Below, one piece after another: positions 5,618-63,210 of a DNA stretch of 64,000 nucleotides. The stretch comes from Candidatus Forterrea multitransposorum CG_2015-17_Forterrea_25_41 (GTDB taxonomy: Archaea > Iainarchaeota > Iainarchaeia > Iainarchaeales > CSSED10-239). Position numbers and translations under genes: made by a program. The DNA is taken from the NCBI GenBank assembly GCA_009392915.1, contig CP045477.1, positions 32,001-96,000 on the forward strand. The letters run 5' to 3'. The notes beneath the pieces were generated by a model. The model saw only the letters and a list, made by a program, of their open reading frames with translations, was not told the origin of the DNA and made no database searches. How positions within the stretch are numbered: position 1 is the stretch's first letter; each line of letters starts with the position of its first letter.

Positions 5618-5699
5618 GCAGAGGTGGCGGAGTGGTCAAACGCGCCAGCCTTGAGAGCTGGAGCCTTGCGCTACACGAGTTCGAATCTCGTCCTCTGCG
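5618..5699 (+). tRNA. tRNA-Ser (anticodon UGA), class II with a long variable arm
   Basis: Cloverleaf as read: acceptor GCAGAGG/CCUCUGC; anticodon stem CCAGC/GCUGG with loop CUUGAGA; T-arm ACGAG-UUCGAAU-CUCGU; long variable arm. Confidence 0.8.
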
Positions 5700-5730
5700 C
5701 TTTATCTTTTAAAATATAGGAATTTTTATT

Positions 5731-6063
5731 ATGATTAAAGAAAACATTTCTTTTCAAGATTTTTTAAAACTTGATATAAGAATTGGAACAATTGTTGAGG
5801 CTGAAGCTGTTGAGGGTTCTGATAAATTAATAAAATTAATAATTGATTTTAAAGATTTTAAAAGACAGATTTTAGCTGGTATTAAAACAAAATATCAACC
5901 AACTGATTTATTAAACAAACAAATTCCTGTTATTGTAAATTTAGAACCTAGAAAAATGATGGGTTTTGAAAGTCAAGGAATGATCTTAGCTGTTGGAGAT
6001 AAAACTTTAGATGCTTTACTTTTACCATCTGAGCCTGTATCGGAAGGCTCGATTGTACACTAA
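5731..6063 (+). CDS. tRNA-binding domain protein (Trbp111/CsaA/EMAP-II-like OB fold)
   Basis: 110 aa. The pattern DIRIGTIVEAEAVEGSDKLIKL...ILAGIK...GMILAV is characteristic of the Myf/Trbp111 tRNA-binding domain. Confidence 0.7.
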   Translation: MIKENISFQDFLKLDIRIGTIVEAEAVEGSDKLIKLIIDFKDFKRQILAGIKTKYQPTDLLNKQIPVIVNLEPRKMMGFESQGMILAVGDKTLDALLLPSEPVSEGSIVH

Positions 6064-6084
6064 TTTTTTTTTAAAACTAAAAAT

Positions 6085-6166
6085 GCAGAGGTGGCGGAGT
6101 GGTCAAACGCGCAAGCCTGGAAAGCTTGAGCCTCGTGCTACGCGAGTTCGAATCTCGTCCTCTGCG
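6085..6166 (+). tRNA. tRNA-Ser (anticodon GGA)
   Basis: The acceptor, D- and T-arms are nearly identical to the tRNA at 5618. Anticodon stem CAAGC/GCUUG with loop CUGGAAA. Confidence 0.8.
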
Positions 6167-6197
6167 CTTTTTTCTTTTTTAATTTAATATTTATTTT

Positions 6198-6286
6198 GCA
6201 GAGATGGCGGAGTGGTCAAACGCACAAGTTTCGAAAACTTGATTAAGGTTTTTTCCTTTACATGAGTTCAAATCTCATTCTCTGCG
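6198..6286 (+). tRNA. tRNA-Ser (anticodon CGA) with an AT-rich variable arm
   Basis: Acceptor GCAGAGA/UCUCUGC; anticodon stem CAAGU/ACUUG with loop UUCGAAA; variable arm AAGG-UUUUUU-CCUU; T-arm AUGAG-UUCAAAU-CUCAU. Confidence 0.7.
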
Positions 6287-6462
6287 TAGCTGGTTTCGGT
6301 CAGCTAGCACCCAATGATTTTGCGTTTGTTAACGCTTATTTAAACTTTCTTTTTAAAAGAAGTGATTTTCCCCCAAAACTTTTTTTCTTTAAAAATTGTG
6401 TTTTAAAAATTTTTAATCTATTTTATATCTATTTAAAATACTTTTGCCTCTCTTTAATATTT

Positions 6463-7584
6463 ATGACTGAAAAAATGATTGTAAATCCATACCAAGTAGA
6501 AGGAGAAGTTGATTACCAAAGACTTGTAAAAGAATTTGGTCTTCAAGAAATAACTCCTGAAATTTTAGAAAAAATAAAACAAATAACTAAAGGTCTTCAT
6601 CCAATGTTAAAGAGAAAAATCTTTTTTGCACATAGAGACCTTAACTGGGTGTTAGATGAATATCTAAAAGGAAATAAATTTTTTCTATATACAGGTTGTG
6701 GTCCATCAGGTCCAATCCATCTAGGGCATGCATTAGTATGGTATTTTACAAAATACTTACAAGATACTTTTGATGTTGAATTATATTTTCAGTTTACAGA
6801 TGATGAAAAATTTTTATACAAAGATAAACCTTATGAAGAAATACAAAAATGGGTCTATGAAAACATGCTTGATGTTATAGCTATAGGTTTTGACCCTAAA
6901 AAAACATTTTTCATAGTAGACACAAAGCATGCTGGTCTTCTTTACCCAGAGGCAATAAAGGTTGCAAAGAAATTAACTTTTTCAACAGTTAAATCTTCTT
7001 TTGGTTTTACAGATAGCAATAATGTTGGATCTATTTTTTATACCTCTATGCAAGCAGTTCCTTCTTTTTTGCCATCAGTTTTAAAAAAGAAAAACATTCC
7101 TTGCCTTATTCCTCATGCAATAGATCAAGATAATCATTTTAGAATAACAAGAGATATTTTACCAAAGCTTGGTTTTTATAAACCTGCAAGCATACAATGT
7201 TCTTTTCTTCCTCCATTAACAGGAGCTTTTGGAAAAATGAGTAGTACTGGAGAAGCTAAAGGAATATTCATGACAGACTCTCCAAAAGAGATTAAAGATA
7301 AAATAAATAAATATGCCTTCTCTGGAGGACAACCAACTTTAGAAGAACATAGAGAAAAAGGTGGAAACACAGAGATTGACATTCCTTTCCAATATTTAAA
7401 ATATCTTTTCGAAGAGGATGATGAAAAATTAGCAGAGATTGAAAAAGATTATTCTTCTGGAAAGATGTTAACTGGAGAGATTAAAAAATATTTAATTGAT
7501 AAAATAACTGCTTTCCTTTTAGCTCATCAAGAAAGAAGAAAAGATGCTCACAAGAAAATAGATGATTTTCTTTTAAAGGTTTAA
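6463..7584 (+). CDS. trpS: Tryptophanyl-tRNA synthetase, archaeal/eukaryal type (class I; TyrRS not fully excluded)
   Basis: It has the HIGH-type motif GCGPSGPIHLGH and a KMSKS-like KMSSTGE. The 374-aa length fits archaeal TrpRS better than TyrRS. The start is placed at ATG 6463 (MTEKMIV...), because the ORF track start at 6262 overlaps the tRNA-Ser(CGA) gene. Confidence 0.65.
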   Translation: MTEKMIVNPYQVEGEVDYQRLVKEFGLQEITPEILEKIKQITKGLHPMLKRKIFFAHRDLNWVLDEYLKGNKFFLYTGCGPSGPIHLGHALVWYFTKYLQDTFDVELYFQFTDDEKFLYKDKPYEEIQKWVYENMLDVIAIGFDPKKTFFIVDTKHAGLLYPEAIKVAKKLTFSTVKSSFGFTDSNNVGSIFYTSMQAVPSFLPSVLKKKNIPCLIPHAIDQDNHFRITRDILPKLGFYKPASIQCSFLPPLTGAFGKMSSTGEAKGIFMTDSPKEIKDKINKYAFSGGQPTLEEHREKGGNTEIDIPFQYLKYLFEEDDEKLAEIEKDYSSGKMLTGEIKKYLIDKITAFLLAHQERRKDAHKKIDDFLLKV

Positions 7585-7596
7585 ATTAGGTGTTTT

Positions 7597-8364
7597 ATGA
7601 ATTTATTATTTTTAGGATTAGGTAATACAGGTATTTCTATTGCCGATAGATTATCTAAAAATAATAATATATTCTATTATGATGTAGTTAAAAAAAATGT
7701 AGCTTATAAGTATTTACCTTTAACAAAGTTAAAAAAATCTAATTTTGATTATATAATAGTTACACTTTCTTCAATTTCGATATTAAACCGACTTAAATTA
7801 TGCTCTAAATATAATACTACTTATGATTTAAGAAAATATGAGTTGGTTAAAAATAAAAATAGTTTGAAAAAAATTATAAATTACCTCCCTAATTCTAAGG
7901 TAATTGTAGTTTCTAATCCTGTGGATGATATTGTTACTTTTTTATCAAAAAATACTAATTTAGATGTAATTGGTTTTGGGATTTCTTTAGATGCTTTAAG
8001 ATATTCTAATTATTTTAAACAAAAAATTAATTGTATTGGTTTACATGGTTTTTCAGTTCCTTTAAAGGTATTAAAAAGTAAAACTCATTTTTTAAAAAGT
8101 TATTCGGCGGTTGATCTAAAATTATTTAACTCTTTTAAAGTTAATGGTATTAATTATGATCTAGTATCAAAAGAATTTGAATTATTTTTTAATAAACTTA
8201 ATTCAGATAAACAAAATACATTATATTTATCTAAATATATTTCAAAAGACATTCTAGGATTAGAAAATATATCTTTATCTCTCCCTTATTTTGTAAAAAA
8301 AGGAAAAGTAGTTGGTCTTAAACAAATAAAACTAACTAGTCTTGAAAAAAATCTATTAAAATAA
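7597..8364 (+). CDS. Lactate/malate dehydrogenase-family protein, short and divergent
   Basis: It has a Rossmann motif, GLGNTG, and the family signature VIVVSNPVDDIVTFL...VIGFGISLDALRY...IGLHGFSVP (compare SNPVD and GEHGDS in LDH/MDH). At 255 aa it is shorter than the canonical ~310 aa. Confidence 0.5.
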   Translation: MNLLFLGLGNTGISIADRLSKNNNIFYYDVVKKNVAYKYLPLTKLKKSNFDYIIVTLSSISILNRLKLCSKYNTTYDLRKYELVKNKNSLKKIINYLPNSKVIVVSNPVDDIVTFLSKNTNLDVIGFGISLDALRYSNYFKQKINCIGLHGFSVPLKVLKSKTHFLKSYSAVDLKLFNSFKVNGINYDLVSKEFELFFNKLNSDKQNTLYLSKYISKDILGLENISLSLPYFVKKGKVVGLKQIKLTSLEKNLLK

Positions 8365-23211: not shown

Positions 23212-23327
23212 GTTAGCGGCCATAGGGATGGAGAAACACCTGGACCCTTTCCGAACCCAGAAGTTAAGTCTATTGCCGTTTTAGTTCGCTGTTAGTTCAT
23301 GCTAGTAGCGTCTTTAAAGCTGCTAAC
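23212..23327 (+). rRNA. rrf: 5S rRNA (stand-alone)
   Basis: The terminal helix gttagcggc...gctgctaac pairs. The archaeal 5S core is present: ccgaacccagaagttaag. The element is GC-enriched relative to its flanks. Confidence 0.75.
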
Positions 23328-23537
23328 ATTTAATATTTTCTATTTTATAAAAAAGAATTATTAAAAGCTATTTTTTTTAAAAATAATTTTTCTACAAGCA
23401 AAACTTATTTTTTTATAAATAATTTAGTTCTTGTTTAGATAAACTTAAATTAAATCTATTTTTTAAAATTAAATATCTTTTAATATATTTCCCTACACAT
23501 TTATTTATTATAATTATTTATTTAAGGGGAAAAATAT

Positions 23538-34605: not shown

Positions 34606-35460
34606 ATGAAAATGGCAGATGAATTTGATTTAAATGAAGACATGGGCTCTACTTCTAAAAGATCTGGAACTTCAAAACTTAGACTTGAAGGAATAATTCC
34701 AATTGTAATAATAATTATTGTTGTTTTATTAATTGCTTTTAAAACAAACATATTTTCAGGATCTTCAGATATATTTAGTGGAAAGGGATCAGCAGTTTTA
34801 ATTATTGGTTCTCCAAGCCCTAATTTACAATTAGTTTTAAACAATGCAGAAAATAAAGATTTAATTAAAGAAAAAAGACAAATAACGATGGATGCTCTTT
34901 TATATAATCCTACTGAAAGGATAAAAGGGTATGATATTATAATATTAGATCAAAGTTTATCTGCTGATAAATCAATTACAAGAACAGCAGGAGAGGCAAT
35001 AGCTTCTTTTGTAAAATCAGGTGGAAGTTTAATGGTTGTTTTAAACTCTGGAATTGAAAGACCAGGAGATCCTTCAGTTATTGGTTGGAAACCAACTTTT
35101 GGAGATATAGTTCCTGTTTCTTGTGATCCTACACTTTACAGTATTCCAAGTTGTAAACAACAATTAAGAGTAAATGGTATTTTATATGCTAATAGATACA
35201 ATAGTAAACAAGGTGCATATAAGATAATGTATGGTATTGAAAAAGTGCCTGCACTTGAATCTGCTGGACTTATTTCAACAGAGACATATCCTGTAACTGT
35301 TAATGGTAATGAAATTGCATATTTAGTTGATTCTAGAACAGGTACATACTATCCTGCAATTGTTGAAAAACCATTACTTTTAGGAAAAGTCATTTACTTT
35401 AATTATGATCCTGGACTTTCAGAAACAATTTTTGTAAATACTTTAAAATATTTAGGTTAG
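34606..35460 (+). CDS. Membrane-anchored hypothetical protein (284 aa)
   Basis: N-terminal TM helix IIPIVIIIIVVLLIAF, then a globular domain. Confidence 0.35.
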   Translation: MKMADEFDLNEDMGSTSKRSGTSKLRLEGIIPIVIIIIVVLLIAFKTNIFSGSSDIFSGKGSAVLIIGSPSPNLQLVLNNAENKDLIKEKRQITMDALLYNPTERIKGYDIIILDQSLSADKSITRTAGEAIASFVKSGGSLMVVLNSGIERPGDPSVIGWKPTFGDIVPVSCDPTLYSIPSCKQQLRVNGILYANRYNSKQGAYKIMYGIEKVPALESAGLISTETYPVTVNGNEIAYLVDSRTGTYYPAIVEKPLLLGKVIYFNYDPGLSETIFVNTLKYLG

Positions 35461-37553: not shown

Positions 37554-39140
37554 ATGTTAGAAGACAAGTATATTACTTTTCCATATATTAAGAAAAATAC
37601 TGTGGAAAAAAGAGTTTATCAAGAACTATTGACTGCAAAAGCTATTGAAACATCTACATTAGTTGTAGCTCCAACTGGTCTTGGAAAAACCATTGTTGCG
37701 GTTTTACTTATAGGGTTTATATACAATCCAAAAAAATCAATTTTATTTTTAGCACCAACAAAACCTCTTGTCTCACAACATAAAAAATCTTTAGAAAAAG
37801 TTTTAGAAGTTGATCCTGATAAAATAATTTTTTTAACAGGACAAAATCCTCCTGAAAAGAGAAAAGAAATTTATTCTCAAAAAGGGTTAGTTATTTGTGC
37901 TACTCCTCAGACAATAGATAATGATATTAAAAATAATCTTTTAAAAGAAGATAATTTTAATTTAATAATCTTTGATGAAGCTCATAGAGCTGTTGGAGAG
38001 TATGCTTATGTTTCTATTTCTTCTTTTTTTAAAGAAGAAATAAAAAGACTTGCATTAACAGCATCTCCTGGTTATAATAAACAGAAAATTAAAGAAATTG
38101 CTGATAATTTAAAAATAAAACATATAGAAATAAAAACTGAATCTGACTTAGATGTTATTGATTATGTTAAAGATATAGAGATTGAAACTGTTTTTGTTGA
38201 ACTTGATGACGTTTCAAAAAAAATATCTAAAATTTTAGATTCTTTTATTTTAAAAAAAATAGAACTTTTAAGAAAACTTAATTTATCAGTTTCTTCAAAC
38301 TTTACTAAAAAACAAATATTAATGGTTCAACAACAATTGTTTAAAAGACTTGAATCTTCTAAAAATTCATTAAATTTTGTAGCACTTATAAATGTGTCTT
38401 TAGCTTTAAAAGCACTTTATGCAAAAGAATTAATTGAGACTCAAGGTTTTTTACCTCTTAAACATTATCTTGAAAAAGCATTTATTGATTCTAAATCTTC
38501 AAAAACTACTAAAACTTTAAATCAATTTGTAAATTCTAAAGAAATTTTAGAAACTTATTCTTTAATAATTAATTTAGATTATTCAAAACCAATTTATTCT
38601 AAGGAAAAAGAAATTGTAGAATTGGTTAAAAACTTTATTTTAAATAATCCTTCTTCAAAAATATTAATTTTTAATAATTTTAGAGATTCTGCTCAAAATA
38701 TTTCAAATTACTTAAATAAATATGATAATTTAAATAGTGTGAGATTTGTTGGACAATCTTCTAAAGAAAAAGATAAAGGATTATCTCAAAAAGAACAAGC
38801 TCAAATAATTTCTGACTTTAGAGATGGTTTAAACAATGTTTTAGTGTGTACTTCTGTTGGTGAAGAAGGACTTGATATTCCTTCAGTTGATTTAGTTTTT
38901 TTTTATGATGCAGTTCCTTCAGAAATTAGGTCTATACAGAGAAGAGGAAGAACAGGTAGATTTAATGCTGGTAAAGTTATTATTCTTTTAAATAAAGATA
39001 CAATTGATGAACATTATTATTATGTTTCTTTAAAGAAAGAAAAAACTATGAAAAAAAATTTAATTTCCATGTCAAGAGATGGAGATTTGAAAATTGTGAA
39101 AAGAAAGAAAAAAGTTCAAAAAAATTTAGGTGACTTTTAA
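37554..39140 (+). CDS. Hef/FANCM-like SF2 helicase (helicase domains only)
   Basis: Motif I VVAPTGLGKT, motif II IIFDEAHRAV, motif III LTASPG, motif VI QRRGRTGR. No nuclease domain lies in the same ORF. Confidence 0.75.
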   Translation: MLEDKYITFPYIKKNTVEKRVYQELLTAKAIETSTLVVAPTGLGKTIVAVLLIGFIYNPKKSILFLAPTKPLVSQHKKSLEKVLEVDPDKIIFLTGQNPPEKRKEIYSQKGLVICATPQTIDNDIKNNLLKEDNFNLIIFDEAHRAVGEYAYVSISSFFKEEIKRLALTASPGYNKQKIKEIADNLKIKHIEIKTESDLDVIDYVKDIEIETVFVELDDVSKKISKILDSFILKKIELLRKLNLSVSSNFTKKQILMVQQQLFKRLESSKNSLNFVALINVSLALKALYAKELIETQGFLPLKHYLEKAFIDSKSSKTTKTLNQFVNSKEILETYSLIINLDYSKPIYSKEKEIVELVKNFILNNPSSKILIFNNFRDSAQNISNYLNKYDNLNSVRFVGQSSKEKDKGLSQKEQAQIISDFRDGLNNVLVCTSVGEEGLDIPSVDLVFFYDAVPSEIRSIQRRGRTGRFNAGKVIILLNKDTIDEHYYYVSLKKEKTMKKNLISMSRDGDLKIVKRKKKVQKNLGDF

Positions 39141-39618
39141 GAAAAAATGTGATATAAATATGGATTTATTAGAATTTATAATTGAAGCAAAAAAAAATAC
39201 TTATGCATCTTCAAAAATAACTGATAAATTAAATAAAGATGGTTCTAAAGAACTTATATTTGAAAAAGATTCTTTAAAATATATTGATAAATATTATGGT
39301 TTTAATCCTTTTTCTGGTCAAGAAATTATTTTTAAAGATTATAAGGGTATTTGGTCTATGAATTATTATGGTTTTATAAAAGATCATTTAGTTTCTGAAA
39401 AAGAAGTTTATTCTTTTTTAAAAAAAGCTTTACTTAATGTTGAAAAAAGATTTCCTTTAAGAGGTCCAAATATTTATAGAGAAGGAGATTTTGAATATTT
39501 TTCAGATACTTCTGGATTTATTGAAGAATTTAATGGAAAGGAAAGAATTGATTATAATGGTAAAACTGTATATCATGGTTTTTATCATGGTGGTCTTTTA
39601 AGAGATAAATTAATTTAA
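39130..39618 (+). CDS. Hypothetical protein (162 aa) inserted between the Hef helicase and the ERCC4 nuclease
   Basis: Its ORF overlaps the helicase stop. There is an alternative start at MDLLEFI. No family was recognised. Confidence 0.35.
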   Translation: MTFKKKCDINMDLLEFIIEAKKNTYASSKITDKLNKDGSKELIFEKDSLKYIDKYYGFNPFSGQEIIFKDYKGIWSMNYYGFIKDHLVSEKEVYSFLKKALLNVEKRFPLRGPNIYREGDFEYFSDTSGFIEEFNGKERIDYNGKTVYHGFYHGGLLRDKLI

Positions 39619-39637
39619 TTTTAAAAAGTGATTTTAA

Positions 39638-40306
39638 ATGCCTTTAAAAGAAATAAATATTATTTGCGATACTAGAGAAAAAGCTTCTTCAGTTTTATCA
39701 GAAATTTCACTTCTTTCAGATAATGATATAAAAGTTAATGTTATTTTAGAACAATTATCTGTTGGAGATTATCAAATTTCAGACGATATTGTAATTGAAA
39801 GAAAAACTTTATCTGATCTTGAAACTTCAATTATTGATGGTAGAATATTTTCTCAATTGCAAGATCTTTCTTTTGTTAAAAGATCTGCTTTAATTATTGA
39901 AGGTGATCCTTTTTTATTGTATAATAGTAAAAGAATAAATGGTAAAGCACTAATTGGTTTAATTACTTCTGTTGGACTTAATTATAGAATTCCTTTATTT
40001 TTTACAAAAAATCAAAAACAAACTGCTTTATTTTTGTGTACCATGGCAAAAAAAGAACAACTTAAAAATGGAACTTCTGAATCTAAACTAAGGTATCAAA
40101 AAAATAAAATGTCAGGTACTCAATTCCAATTATTTATAATGCAGTCTTTTCCAGATGTAGGACCTACTCTTGCAAAATCTATTTTAAAAGAATTTAAATC
40201 TATTAAAAATATTTCAAATGCAAGTATTGAAGATTTATTAAAAGTTCCAAAACTTGGTCCAAAAAAAGCTCAAAAAATAAAATATCTTTTTGAAAGAGAA
40301 TATTAG
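39638..40306 (+). CDS. ERCC4-type (XPF/Mus81/Hef) nuclease with C-terminal HhH2
   Basis: GDY...IERKTLSDL (the ERK nuclease motif) and a C-terminal LKVPKLGPKKAQKI helix-hairpin-helix. Confidence 0.75.
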   Translation: MPLKEINIICDTREKASSVLSEISLLSDNDIKVNVILEQLSVGDYQISDDIVIERKTLSDLETSIIDGRIFSQLQDLSFVKRSALIIEGDPFLLYNSKRINGKALIGLITSVGLNYRIPLFFTKNQKQTALFLCTMAKKEQLKNGTSESKLRYQKNKMSGTQFQLFIMQSFPDVGPTLAKSILKEFKSIKNISNASIEDLLKVPKLGPKKAQKIKYLFEREY

Positions 40307-63128: not shown

Positions 63129-63210
63129 GCAGGGGTTCCCGAGTGGTCAAAGGGGCAGGACTTAAGATCCTGTGCTTAGTGCTTCGCAGGTTCGAATCCT
63201 GTCCCCTGCA
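63129..63210 (+). tRNA. tRNA-Leu (anticodon UAA), class II
   Basis: Acceptor GCAGGGG/CCCCUGC; anticodon stem CAGGA/UCCUG with loop CUUAAGA; long variable arm; T-arm GGUUCGAAUCC. Confidence 0.8.

Follow-up and report, generated by a model that had tools for sequence, protein, structure and literature searches.

Hef is a core replication-fork repair enzyme that in Pyrococcus furiosus and Thermococcus kodakarensis carries its helicase and its nuclease on a single chain, and the locus described here raises the question of whether the enzyme can be encoded instead by two separate genes and, if so, how such an arrangement arose. The locus lies in a 64,000-nucleotide (nt) stretch of DNA from Candidatus Forterrea multitransposorum CG_2015-17_Forterrea_25_41 (contig CP045477.1, positions 32,001 to 96,000 of the forward strand; hereafter the window, in whose own numbering coordinates of the organism are given), with a G+C content of ~25%. 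The original prediction held that hef is split here into a helicase gene and a nuclease gene with an unrelated open reading frame (ORF) between them, and offered two explanations, either a gene fission with an insertion or an intermediate between crenarchaeal XPF and fused Hef. Our analysis favors the first: we regard it as likely that the two-gene Hef is genuine and lineage-specific, and that it arose by an in-place cut of a single hef gene directly after the PCNA-interacting peptide (PIP) box that ends the helicase. The three genes, with lengths in amino acids (aa), are as follows.

37554..39140, + strand: Hef helicase subunit, 528 aa, with a superfamily 2 (SF2) helicase core and a helical insertion domain
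39160..39618, + strand: DUF5680 gene, the inserted cargo, 152 aa from ATG 39160 (162 aa if read from GTG 39130)
39638..40306, + strand: Hef nuclease subunit, 222 aa, with an ERCC4 nuclease domain and HhH2

Each gene occupies a different reading frame, and with the ATG 39160 start a 19-nt spacer lies on each side of the DUF5680 gene. Ribosomal-protein genes flank the split hef, with L1, P0/L10 and P1/L12 upstream and S8e, together with Cgi121, downstream. The helicase and nuclease ORFs are 497 nt apart and have no covalent join. Neither half reaches the 610-bit whole-protein cut-off of the Hef equivalog model NF010337/PRK13766 (helicase 569 bits, nuclease 203 bits), and jointly they cover positions 3-518 and 569-779 of its 781. 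Alignment to Pyrococcus Hef, proposed earlier as a check, places the split at the domain boundaries, the helicase matching the structure 1WP9 and the nuclease matching 1J22 and 1X2I.

The helicase half is complete, as had been predicted for the ORF at 37554-39140. It matches positions 3-518 of NCBIfam Hef NF010337 (E 1e-170) and residues 3-493 of 494 of the P. furiosus Hef helicase-domain structure 1WP9 (E 1e-116), and its Pfam matches comprise DEAD, ResIII and Helicase_C together with the PF21210 helical bundle, which is the insertion domain (E 1e-10). The motifs PTGLGKT, DEAH, TASPG and QRRGRTGR stand at their expected places in the translation, from which the following positions were read.

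37671..37691, + strand: Walker A / motif I, PTGLGKT, invariant in 46 clade helicases
37974..37985, + strand: motif II, DEAH (D141, E142, A143 and H144), invariant in the same 46
38937..38960, + strand: motif VI, QRRGRTGR, invariant or nearly so in the same 46
39117..39137, + strand: C-terminal PIP box QKNLGDF, formed by the final seven helicase residues, with the fission point directly after it

By its sequence the C-terminal motif is a canonical PIP box, and PCNA binding is predicted for it. Most of the 46 aligned clade helicases carry a QKx[IL]xD[FY]-type motif at the C-terminus or no more than two residues from the end, preceded by a basic run, with K replacing Q in one subgroup. The helicase-only Hef of Thermoplasma acidophilum likewise has a PIP box at its extreme C-terminus (residues 502-508), which binds PCNA (PMC4838364). 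All 67 fused Hefs among the helicase-search matches have a PIP-like motif at the helicase/nuclease junction, and in the nearest fused DPANN Hefs only ~10 residues separate the PIP box from the first conserved nuclease strand. Because the cut falls within this ~10-residue linker, fission removed almost nothing and left each module intact.

The second half likewise bears out the prediction of an ERK-motif nuclease with HhH2 starting at 39638. It matches the Hef model at positions 569-779 with 203 bits, and scores 132 bits against the archaeal Xpf model NF040956, below the 300-bit cut-off of the latter. Pfam assigns it ERCC4, HHH_5, HHH_2 and HHH, the best sequence match in the PDB is Aeropyrum pernix XPF 2BGW (E 2e-27), and it aligns to the nuclease (1J22) and HhH2 (1X2I) domains of P. 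furiosus Hef. The first conserved strand begins ~5 residues after the start of the protein, and a GTGAT Shine-Dalgarno-like element lies upstream of the start codon. Two features were placed within it.

39764..39817, + strand: catalytic signature GDXnERKX3D, GDYQISDDIVIERKTLSD, intact in the translation
40142..40297, + strand: HhH2, two helix-hairpin-helix motifs forming the dimerisation/DNA-binding domain (Pfam HHH_5/HHH_2/HHH at residues 169-220; 1X2I alignment)

Within the catalytic signature, G43, D44, Y45, E54, R55, K56 and D60 are invariant across nine clade nucleases.

These genes recur unchanged in independent assemblies from NCBI, JGI, ENA and Logan. An identical helicase was found on 39 contigs and an identical nuclease on 40, while the exact DUF5680 protein is called as a 162-aa gene on 29 contigs and as a 152-aa gene on 11; some of the contigs with exact proteins are labelled 'Candidatus ainarchaeum sp.' Compared with a 97%-identical relative (L091), the ratios of non-synonymous to synonymous substitution rates (dN/dS) are 0.076 (helicase), 0.156 (DUF5680) and 0.144 (nuclease), low values that place all three genes under purifying selection.

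The split extends across a clade. Our helicase search returned ~49 helicase-only clusters (514-544 aa, no ERCC4 domain, 54-97% identity), below which, at 46% identity or less, the listed matches are nearly all fused Hefs of 713-818 aa with a few short exceptions. The nuclease search returned ~66 stand-alone clusters (~220-238 aa, 55-100% identity) before identity drops to 42% or less, and a metagenome scan with a single helicase sequence found only two close relatives. A neighbor-joining tree unites the split helicases in one clade with a long stem; the two halves diverge in parallel across this clade, and GTDB species representatives drawn from it are labelled Candidatus Diapherotrites or Iainarchaeum. 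Gene order in the clade is rpl1-rplP0-rplP1-helicase-[gap]-nuclease-cgi121-rps8e. Fused Hef is present in 59 of the 80 sampled species-representative loci, its holders being other Iainarchaeum/Diapherotrites genomes, Micrarchaeota, Altiarchaeota, Euryarchaeota and Asgard archaea, and in one locus labelled Candidatus Iainarchaeum (L053) it lies directly upstream of rps8e. Since the fused gene occupies the same position beside rps8e in L053, fission in situ is favored over an intermediate form; a derived, in-place fission is further favored because the nuclease fits the Hef model better, the halves diverge in parallel and fused Hef is widespread. Thus, the first of the two explanations originally offered, gene fission with an insertion, draws support from the domain boundaries, from the clade-wide split and from the fused Hef still in place in L053.

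The same breakpoint is found in other archaea. Adjacent splits occur in a Methanocellales locus (L013, 7450-7720), where the helicase ends ...QKQLVDF, and in two Aenigmatarchaeota loci, where it ends ...QRNLDDY (L082, 266-2541) and ...QRDLDEF (L086, 391-2668). In all three, no gene has been inserted, and 55-75 nt lie between the helicase stop and the first position of the nuclease match. Because the Aenigmatarchaeota and Methanocellales genes split independently at the same point, fission is recurrent. Helicase ORFs of Thermoplasmata/Methanomassiliicoccales (L031, L042, L062 and L083) also stop right after the PIP box, and a nuclease was not detected in the available flank of these four loci, a flank that is very short for L031 and L042.

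Three further Hef loci differ in their surroundings or domain content. A helicase-only Hef lies 1 nt downstream of a DHH/DHHA1 gene, of the family of the Hef-associated nuclease HAN, in L006 (1662-4170), and in L097 (3001-7477) a sulfatase gene and a DHH gene come after a split helicase, the ERCC4 gene not being adjacent. A contig labelled Candidatus Acidiferrales bacterium (L071, DASPRZ010000050.1) carries at 5995-8217 a 741-aa Hef-like ORF whose C-terminal part gave no ERCC4 match at E 1e-5; misbinning, horizontal transfer or a diverged C-terminal domain could account for it.

What, then, lies between the two halves in the window? The middle ORF matches Pfam DUF5680 (PF18931) over positions 1-104 of 104 (E 4.5e-33, 114 bits against a cut-off of 25), and its product is predicted to be a confidently folded domain. 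The 162-aa ORF of the original prediction is therefore a real gene unrelated to Hef; that it seemed to run into the helicase stop probably comes from the choice of GTG 39130 as its start. In each of the 54 aligned homologues the protein starts at the position matching ATG 39160, the NCBI annotation gives the 152-aa form, and 6 nt before this ATG there is a GTGAT Shine-Dalgarno-like element. Because these three lines agree, the gene most likely runs from 39160 to 39618, clear of the helicase stop.

A search for the family elsewhere, also suggested at the outset, found DUF5680 widely in bacteria, in contexts without a link to Hef, and only in this archaeal clade does it appear to stand between the halves of Hef. 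The family has 2883 representatives at 50% clustering, mostly stand-alone proteins of ~150 aa; among its fusions an N-terminal XRE helix-turn-helix is recurrent, one member is fused to SH3, and one DapB_N fusion is probably spurious. On metagenomic contigs, DUF5680 genes neighbor GmrSD_N, HNH and DUF2779 genes, or small ORFs with an HNH gene, and on another contig housekeeping genes (tRNA synthetases, RecO). On Bacillus cereus-group megaplasmids the gene adjoins an IS3 transposase (L099, B. cereus plasmid pBFR_2, 4980-5456), a plasmid setting that hints at membership of a variable accessory gene pool. In L099 an SMI1/KNR4 immunity-family gene and an AbrB/MazE gene also lie near DUF5680. We found no PDB sequence match for DUF5680, no PADLOC or PHROG match, and no relative in the IMG/VR or INPHARED phages; in the literature searched, one paper mentions the family in passing and none characterises its function. 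The protein is probably a small binding or sensor module.

Relatives of the organism carry other cargo at the same site. In several, though not in the window, the gap holds a toxin-antitoxin (TA)-like pair, with an upstream gene of ~87-89 aa and a downstream gene of ~91-93 aa lying 0-9 nt apart in L003, L005, L095 and L098. The downstream product matches TIGR00053 YafQ over its full length (E 1.6e-19 to 5e-13) at 49-70 bits, below the cut-off of 87.25, TIGR02385 at 19-27 bits (cut-off 27.9) and a PHROG RelE-like toxin family at E 8e-9; the upstream, antitoxin-like product has no family match. Gap content was examined in ~12 of the ~49 clade members, as follows.

DUF5680 gene only: the window, L001/L002, L008 and L091
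DUF5680 gene with antitoxin and toxin genes: L095
TA-like pair only: L003, L005 and L098
nothing: L009 (6 nt from stop to ATG) and L096 (39 nt)
80-aa gene with weak similarity to the first small TA gene, then the contig end: L010
nuclease not adjacent: L097

Among L003, L005, L095 and L098 the TA pair is 54-81% identical, a divergence similar to that of the helicases, and because the two divergences match, the pair was inherited vertically at this site. It is present on both sides of the deepest sampled clade split (P0107, P0110 and P0108 versus P0097). Further RelE/ParE-type TA-like pairs lie between the rplP1 (L12) gene and the helicase in L005 (2637-3262) and L095 (2378-3001), and as these extra pairs sit upstream of the helicase, the whole neighborhood attracts TA modules. 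Around the insert we found no mobile-element signature, neither terminal inverted repeats nor a target-site duplication, only short AT-rich chance repeats, and when filled and empty junctions are aligned, the GTGAT Shine-Dalgarno-like element is all they have in common. Because both Hef halves persist in several clade members that lack DUF5680, we read this gene as most likely a vertically inherited, long-resident passenger and not a subunit needed for Hef function.

Several points count against this account of a derived fission with passenger cargo and against the way in which we take the two subunits to work. In the midpoint-rooted tree, the split clade is sister to the sampled fused Hefs and not nested among them, so that the derived status of the split rests on taxonomy labels, synteny and parsimony. 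Gap content was read from ~12 of the ~49 clade members. DUF5680 has been kept at the same site under purifying selection in lineages whose helicases are ~60% identical, and clade members share 51-72% identity with the window in DUF5680 and 60-78% in the helicase; such long retention is also expected under a functional link to Hef. The window nuclease, which ends KAQKIKYLFEREY (KYLFEREY), has no recognisable PIP box, and the pattern Qxx[LIM]xx[FY][FY], which describes the canonical motif only and leaves room for a non-canonical one, is absent from all nine clade nucleases. Subunit cooperation, PCNA binding and co-transcription, moreover, are all things that we infer.

The alternative that survives best concerns the order of events. 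A selfish cassette, consisting of a RelE/YafQ-type TA pair and perhaps DUF5680, may have entered the hef linker and thereby caused the fission, with the lineage of the window losing the pair later; in the opposite order, the gene split first and the gap was colonised afterwards. That the TA pair occurs on both sides of the deepest sampled split, has been inherited vertically with 54-81% identity, stands together with DUF5680 in L095 and has counterparts upstream of the helicase in L005 and L095 speak for a cassette that caused the fission. However, the Aenigmatarchaeota and Methanocellales genes are split at the same point without an insert, so that insertion is not required for fission; two clade members (L009 and L096) have no cargo, the earliest-branching member, P0126, falls outside the examined set, and the insert lacks the terminal repeats or target-site duplication noted above. 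On this balance, the cassette as the cause of fission is a possibility that we hold only tentatively, somewhat on the doubtful side.

Could the cargo instead have become part of the enzyme? DUF5680, or the TA pair in relatives, would then be a functional third component, either an adaptor that replaces the linker or a regulator of the two subunits. An adaptor role is conceivable because the inter-domain region of Thermococcus Hef is a partner-binding hub that binds PCNA and HAN (PMC6158738), and the operon-like 19-nt spacing on both sides of DUF5680, as well as its retention at the site under purifying selection across divergent lineages, would fit such a role. Yet at least five sampled clade members (L003, L005, L098, L009 and L096) have both halves without DUF5680, the family is common in Hef-less bacteria in unrelated contexts and in fusions with an XRE helix-turn-helix or SH3, and neither PADLOC nor PHROG recognises it; we consider a third component unlikely. 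A bolder version, in which a selfish TA/DUF5680 cassette split hef in its disordered linker and then joined the repair operon, where DUF5680 or the TA pair might couple the expression or assembly of the subunits to stress, is improbable and is offered as speculation. If true, it would provide a natural case of a mobile addiction module first remodelling and then regulating a core replication-fork repair enzyme.

The second explanation offered at the outset, that the two-gene form predates the fusion and stands between the nuclease-only XPF of Crenarchaeota and the fused Hef of euryarchaea, fares considerably worse. In its favor, DPANN lineages are often placed deep in archaeal trees, and in the midpoint-rooted tree the split clade has a long branch to itself, as the sister group of every sampled fused Hef. 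Against this, the clade is shallow (at least 54% identity) and its members all belong to a single group of genomes labelled Iainarchaeota, a fused Hef is found in further Iainarchaeum/Diapherotrites genomes as well as in many archaeal groups (the 59 of 80 representatives), L053 has its fused Hef in the same place beside rps8e, the nuclease scores 203 bits with the C-terminal part of the Hef model and 132 with archaeal Xpf, and Aenigmatarchaeota and Methanocellales split independently at the same point. We therefore do not favor an ancestral intermediate and consider it very unlikely.

The weakest alternative, a sequencing or assembly frameshift in an organism that truly has one fused hef, which had been named as the outcome that would overturn the prediction, has a negligible probability: split genes in low-coverage metagenome-assembled genomes are often errors, and the unrelated locus L007 (2x coverage) does look erroneous, but here the halves lie 497 nt apart in different frames, no single frameshift could join them into one Hef ORF, given the ~460 nt in between that are conserved, unrelated to Hef and code for a Pfam domain with a confidently predicted fold, identical proteins recur on 39-40 contigs of independent assemblies, the architecture is kept across the clade down to 54% identity, and all three genes are under purifying selection, so that the three frames, the recurrence and the selection together rule out an artefact. 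In L007 (ERZ2647914 NODE_4762, ~2x), by contrast, the ERCC4 gene is broken into pieces of 113 aa and 82 aa and a tRNA synthetase gene is fragmented as well, and the Hef split there looks like an assembly or frameshift error.

Returning to an in-place fission, a plausible course of events can be proposed. In the ancestor of an Iainarchaeota/Diapherotrites-type DPANN clade, a single hef gene would have been cut in place, in the linker of ~10 residues behind the PIP box; the nuclease now has a ribosome-binding site and a start codon of its own. At stalled forks the helicase would be held on PCNA by the PIP box at its C-terminus and would remodel the fork, and the nuclease, as an HhH2-mediated homodimer, would cut the fork or flap in trans. 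Co-expression of the three co-directional, closely spaced genes is likely, judging from their arrangement. This working model is drawn from Pyrococcus/Thermococcus Hef, the helicase-only Hef of Thermoplasma and crenarchaeal XPF (PMC4838364, PMC6158738, PMC7776575).

How far does this two-gene form depart from known systems? The fused Hefs of P. furiosus and T. kodakarensis (1WP9, 1J22-1J25, 1X2I) share with the window the helicase core with its insertion domain, which aligns end to end, the ERCC4 catalytic motif with HhH2 and a PIP-type motif ending the helicase part, whereas in the window each part is a polypeptide with its own gene, a foreign gene stands between the two genes, and the long disordered inter-domain region of Thermococcus Hef, which binds PCNA and HAN (PMC6158738), is absent from its proteins. 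The Hef of Thermoplasma acidophilum (taHef) resembles the window helicase in its size (~510-530 aa), its helicase-only composition and its C-terminal PIP box (PMC4838364); taHef is, however, described without a nuclease domain, while the window keeps a matching Hef-type nuclease gene 497 nt downstream. The short crenarchaeal XPF (A. pernix 2BGW; Sulfolobus) resembles the window nuclease in its ERCC4 domain, HhH2 and length of ~220 aa, and it depends on PCNA (PMC2836553). In contrast, the window nuclease falls below the archaeal Xpf cut-off (132 versus 300 bits) and does better with the Hef model (203), has no recognisable C-terminal PCNA-binding motif and adjoins a Hef helicase gene. The translocase domain of FANCM is homologous to the window helicase (9EL5, E 1.5e-65), and the ERCC4 domains of FANCM and XPF are homologous to the window nuclease; FANCM, however, is a single chain with an inactive nuclease domain, whereas the nuclease motif of the window is intact and on a separate chain. 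For the cargo, the TA pair of the relatives resembles type II RelE/YafQ modules in size, gene order and full-length toxin match, but its toxin falls below the curated cut-off (TIGR00053), its antitoxin has no family match, and its site between the halves of a repair gene and its vertical inheritance are unusual. Our literature search found no description of a two-gene Hef with an adjacent nuclease or of a cargo slot between the halves. With helicase-only Hef (Thermoplasma) and short XPF (Crenarchaeota) already published, the two-gene Hef is a new architectural variant and not a new kind of system.

Some observations in the window lie outside the split gene. Upstream of the L1 gene, a 284-aa ORF at 34606-35460 has no Pfam match; it is kept across the split-Hef clade with 50-66% identity, in synteny between the enolase gene and rpl1. 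Unrelated to the finding are three tRNA-Ser genes (anticodons TGA, GGA and CGA) within 700 nt at 5618-6287, and a stand-alone 5S rRNA gene and a tRNA-Leu gene (23212-23328 and 63129-63210).

The human relatives of archaeal Hef are FANCM and XPF, and the cooperation of the helicase and nuclease of Hef is still studied with artificially separated domains. The clade described here offers a natural two-subunit Hef, cut exactly after the PCNA-binding motif. At least three further groups of archaea have arrived at this breakpoint independently, which suggests that the modules naturally part at the PIP box and that a simple fission can yield a helicase-only Hef, like that of Thermoplasma, or an XPF-like protein with the nuclease alone. 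The varying cargo also shows that accessory or selfish genes can persist for long in a core repair operon, and the locus gives DUF5680 a defined, conserved genomic setting. The finding bears on archaeal fork repair and on the evolution of gene fission; it is a modest evolutionary variant that leaves the understanding of the pathway unchanged and opens no major question.

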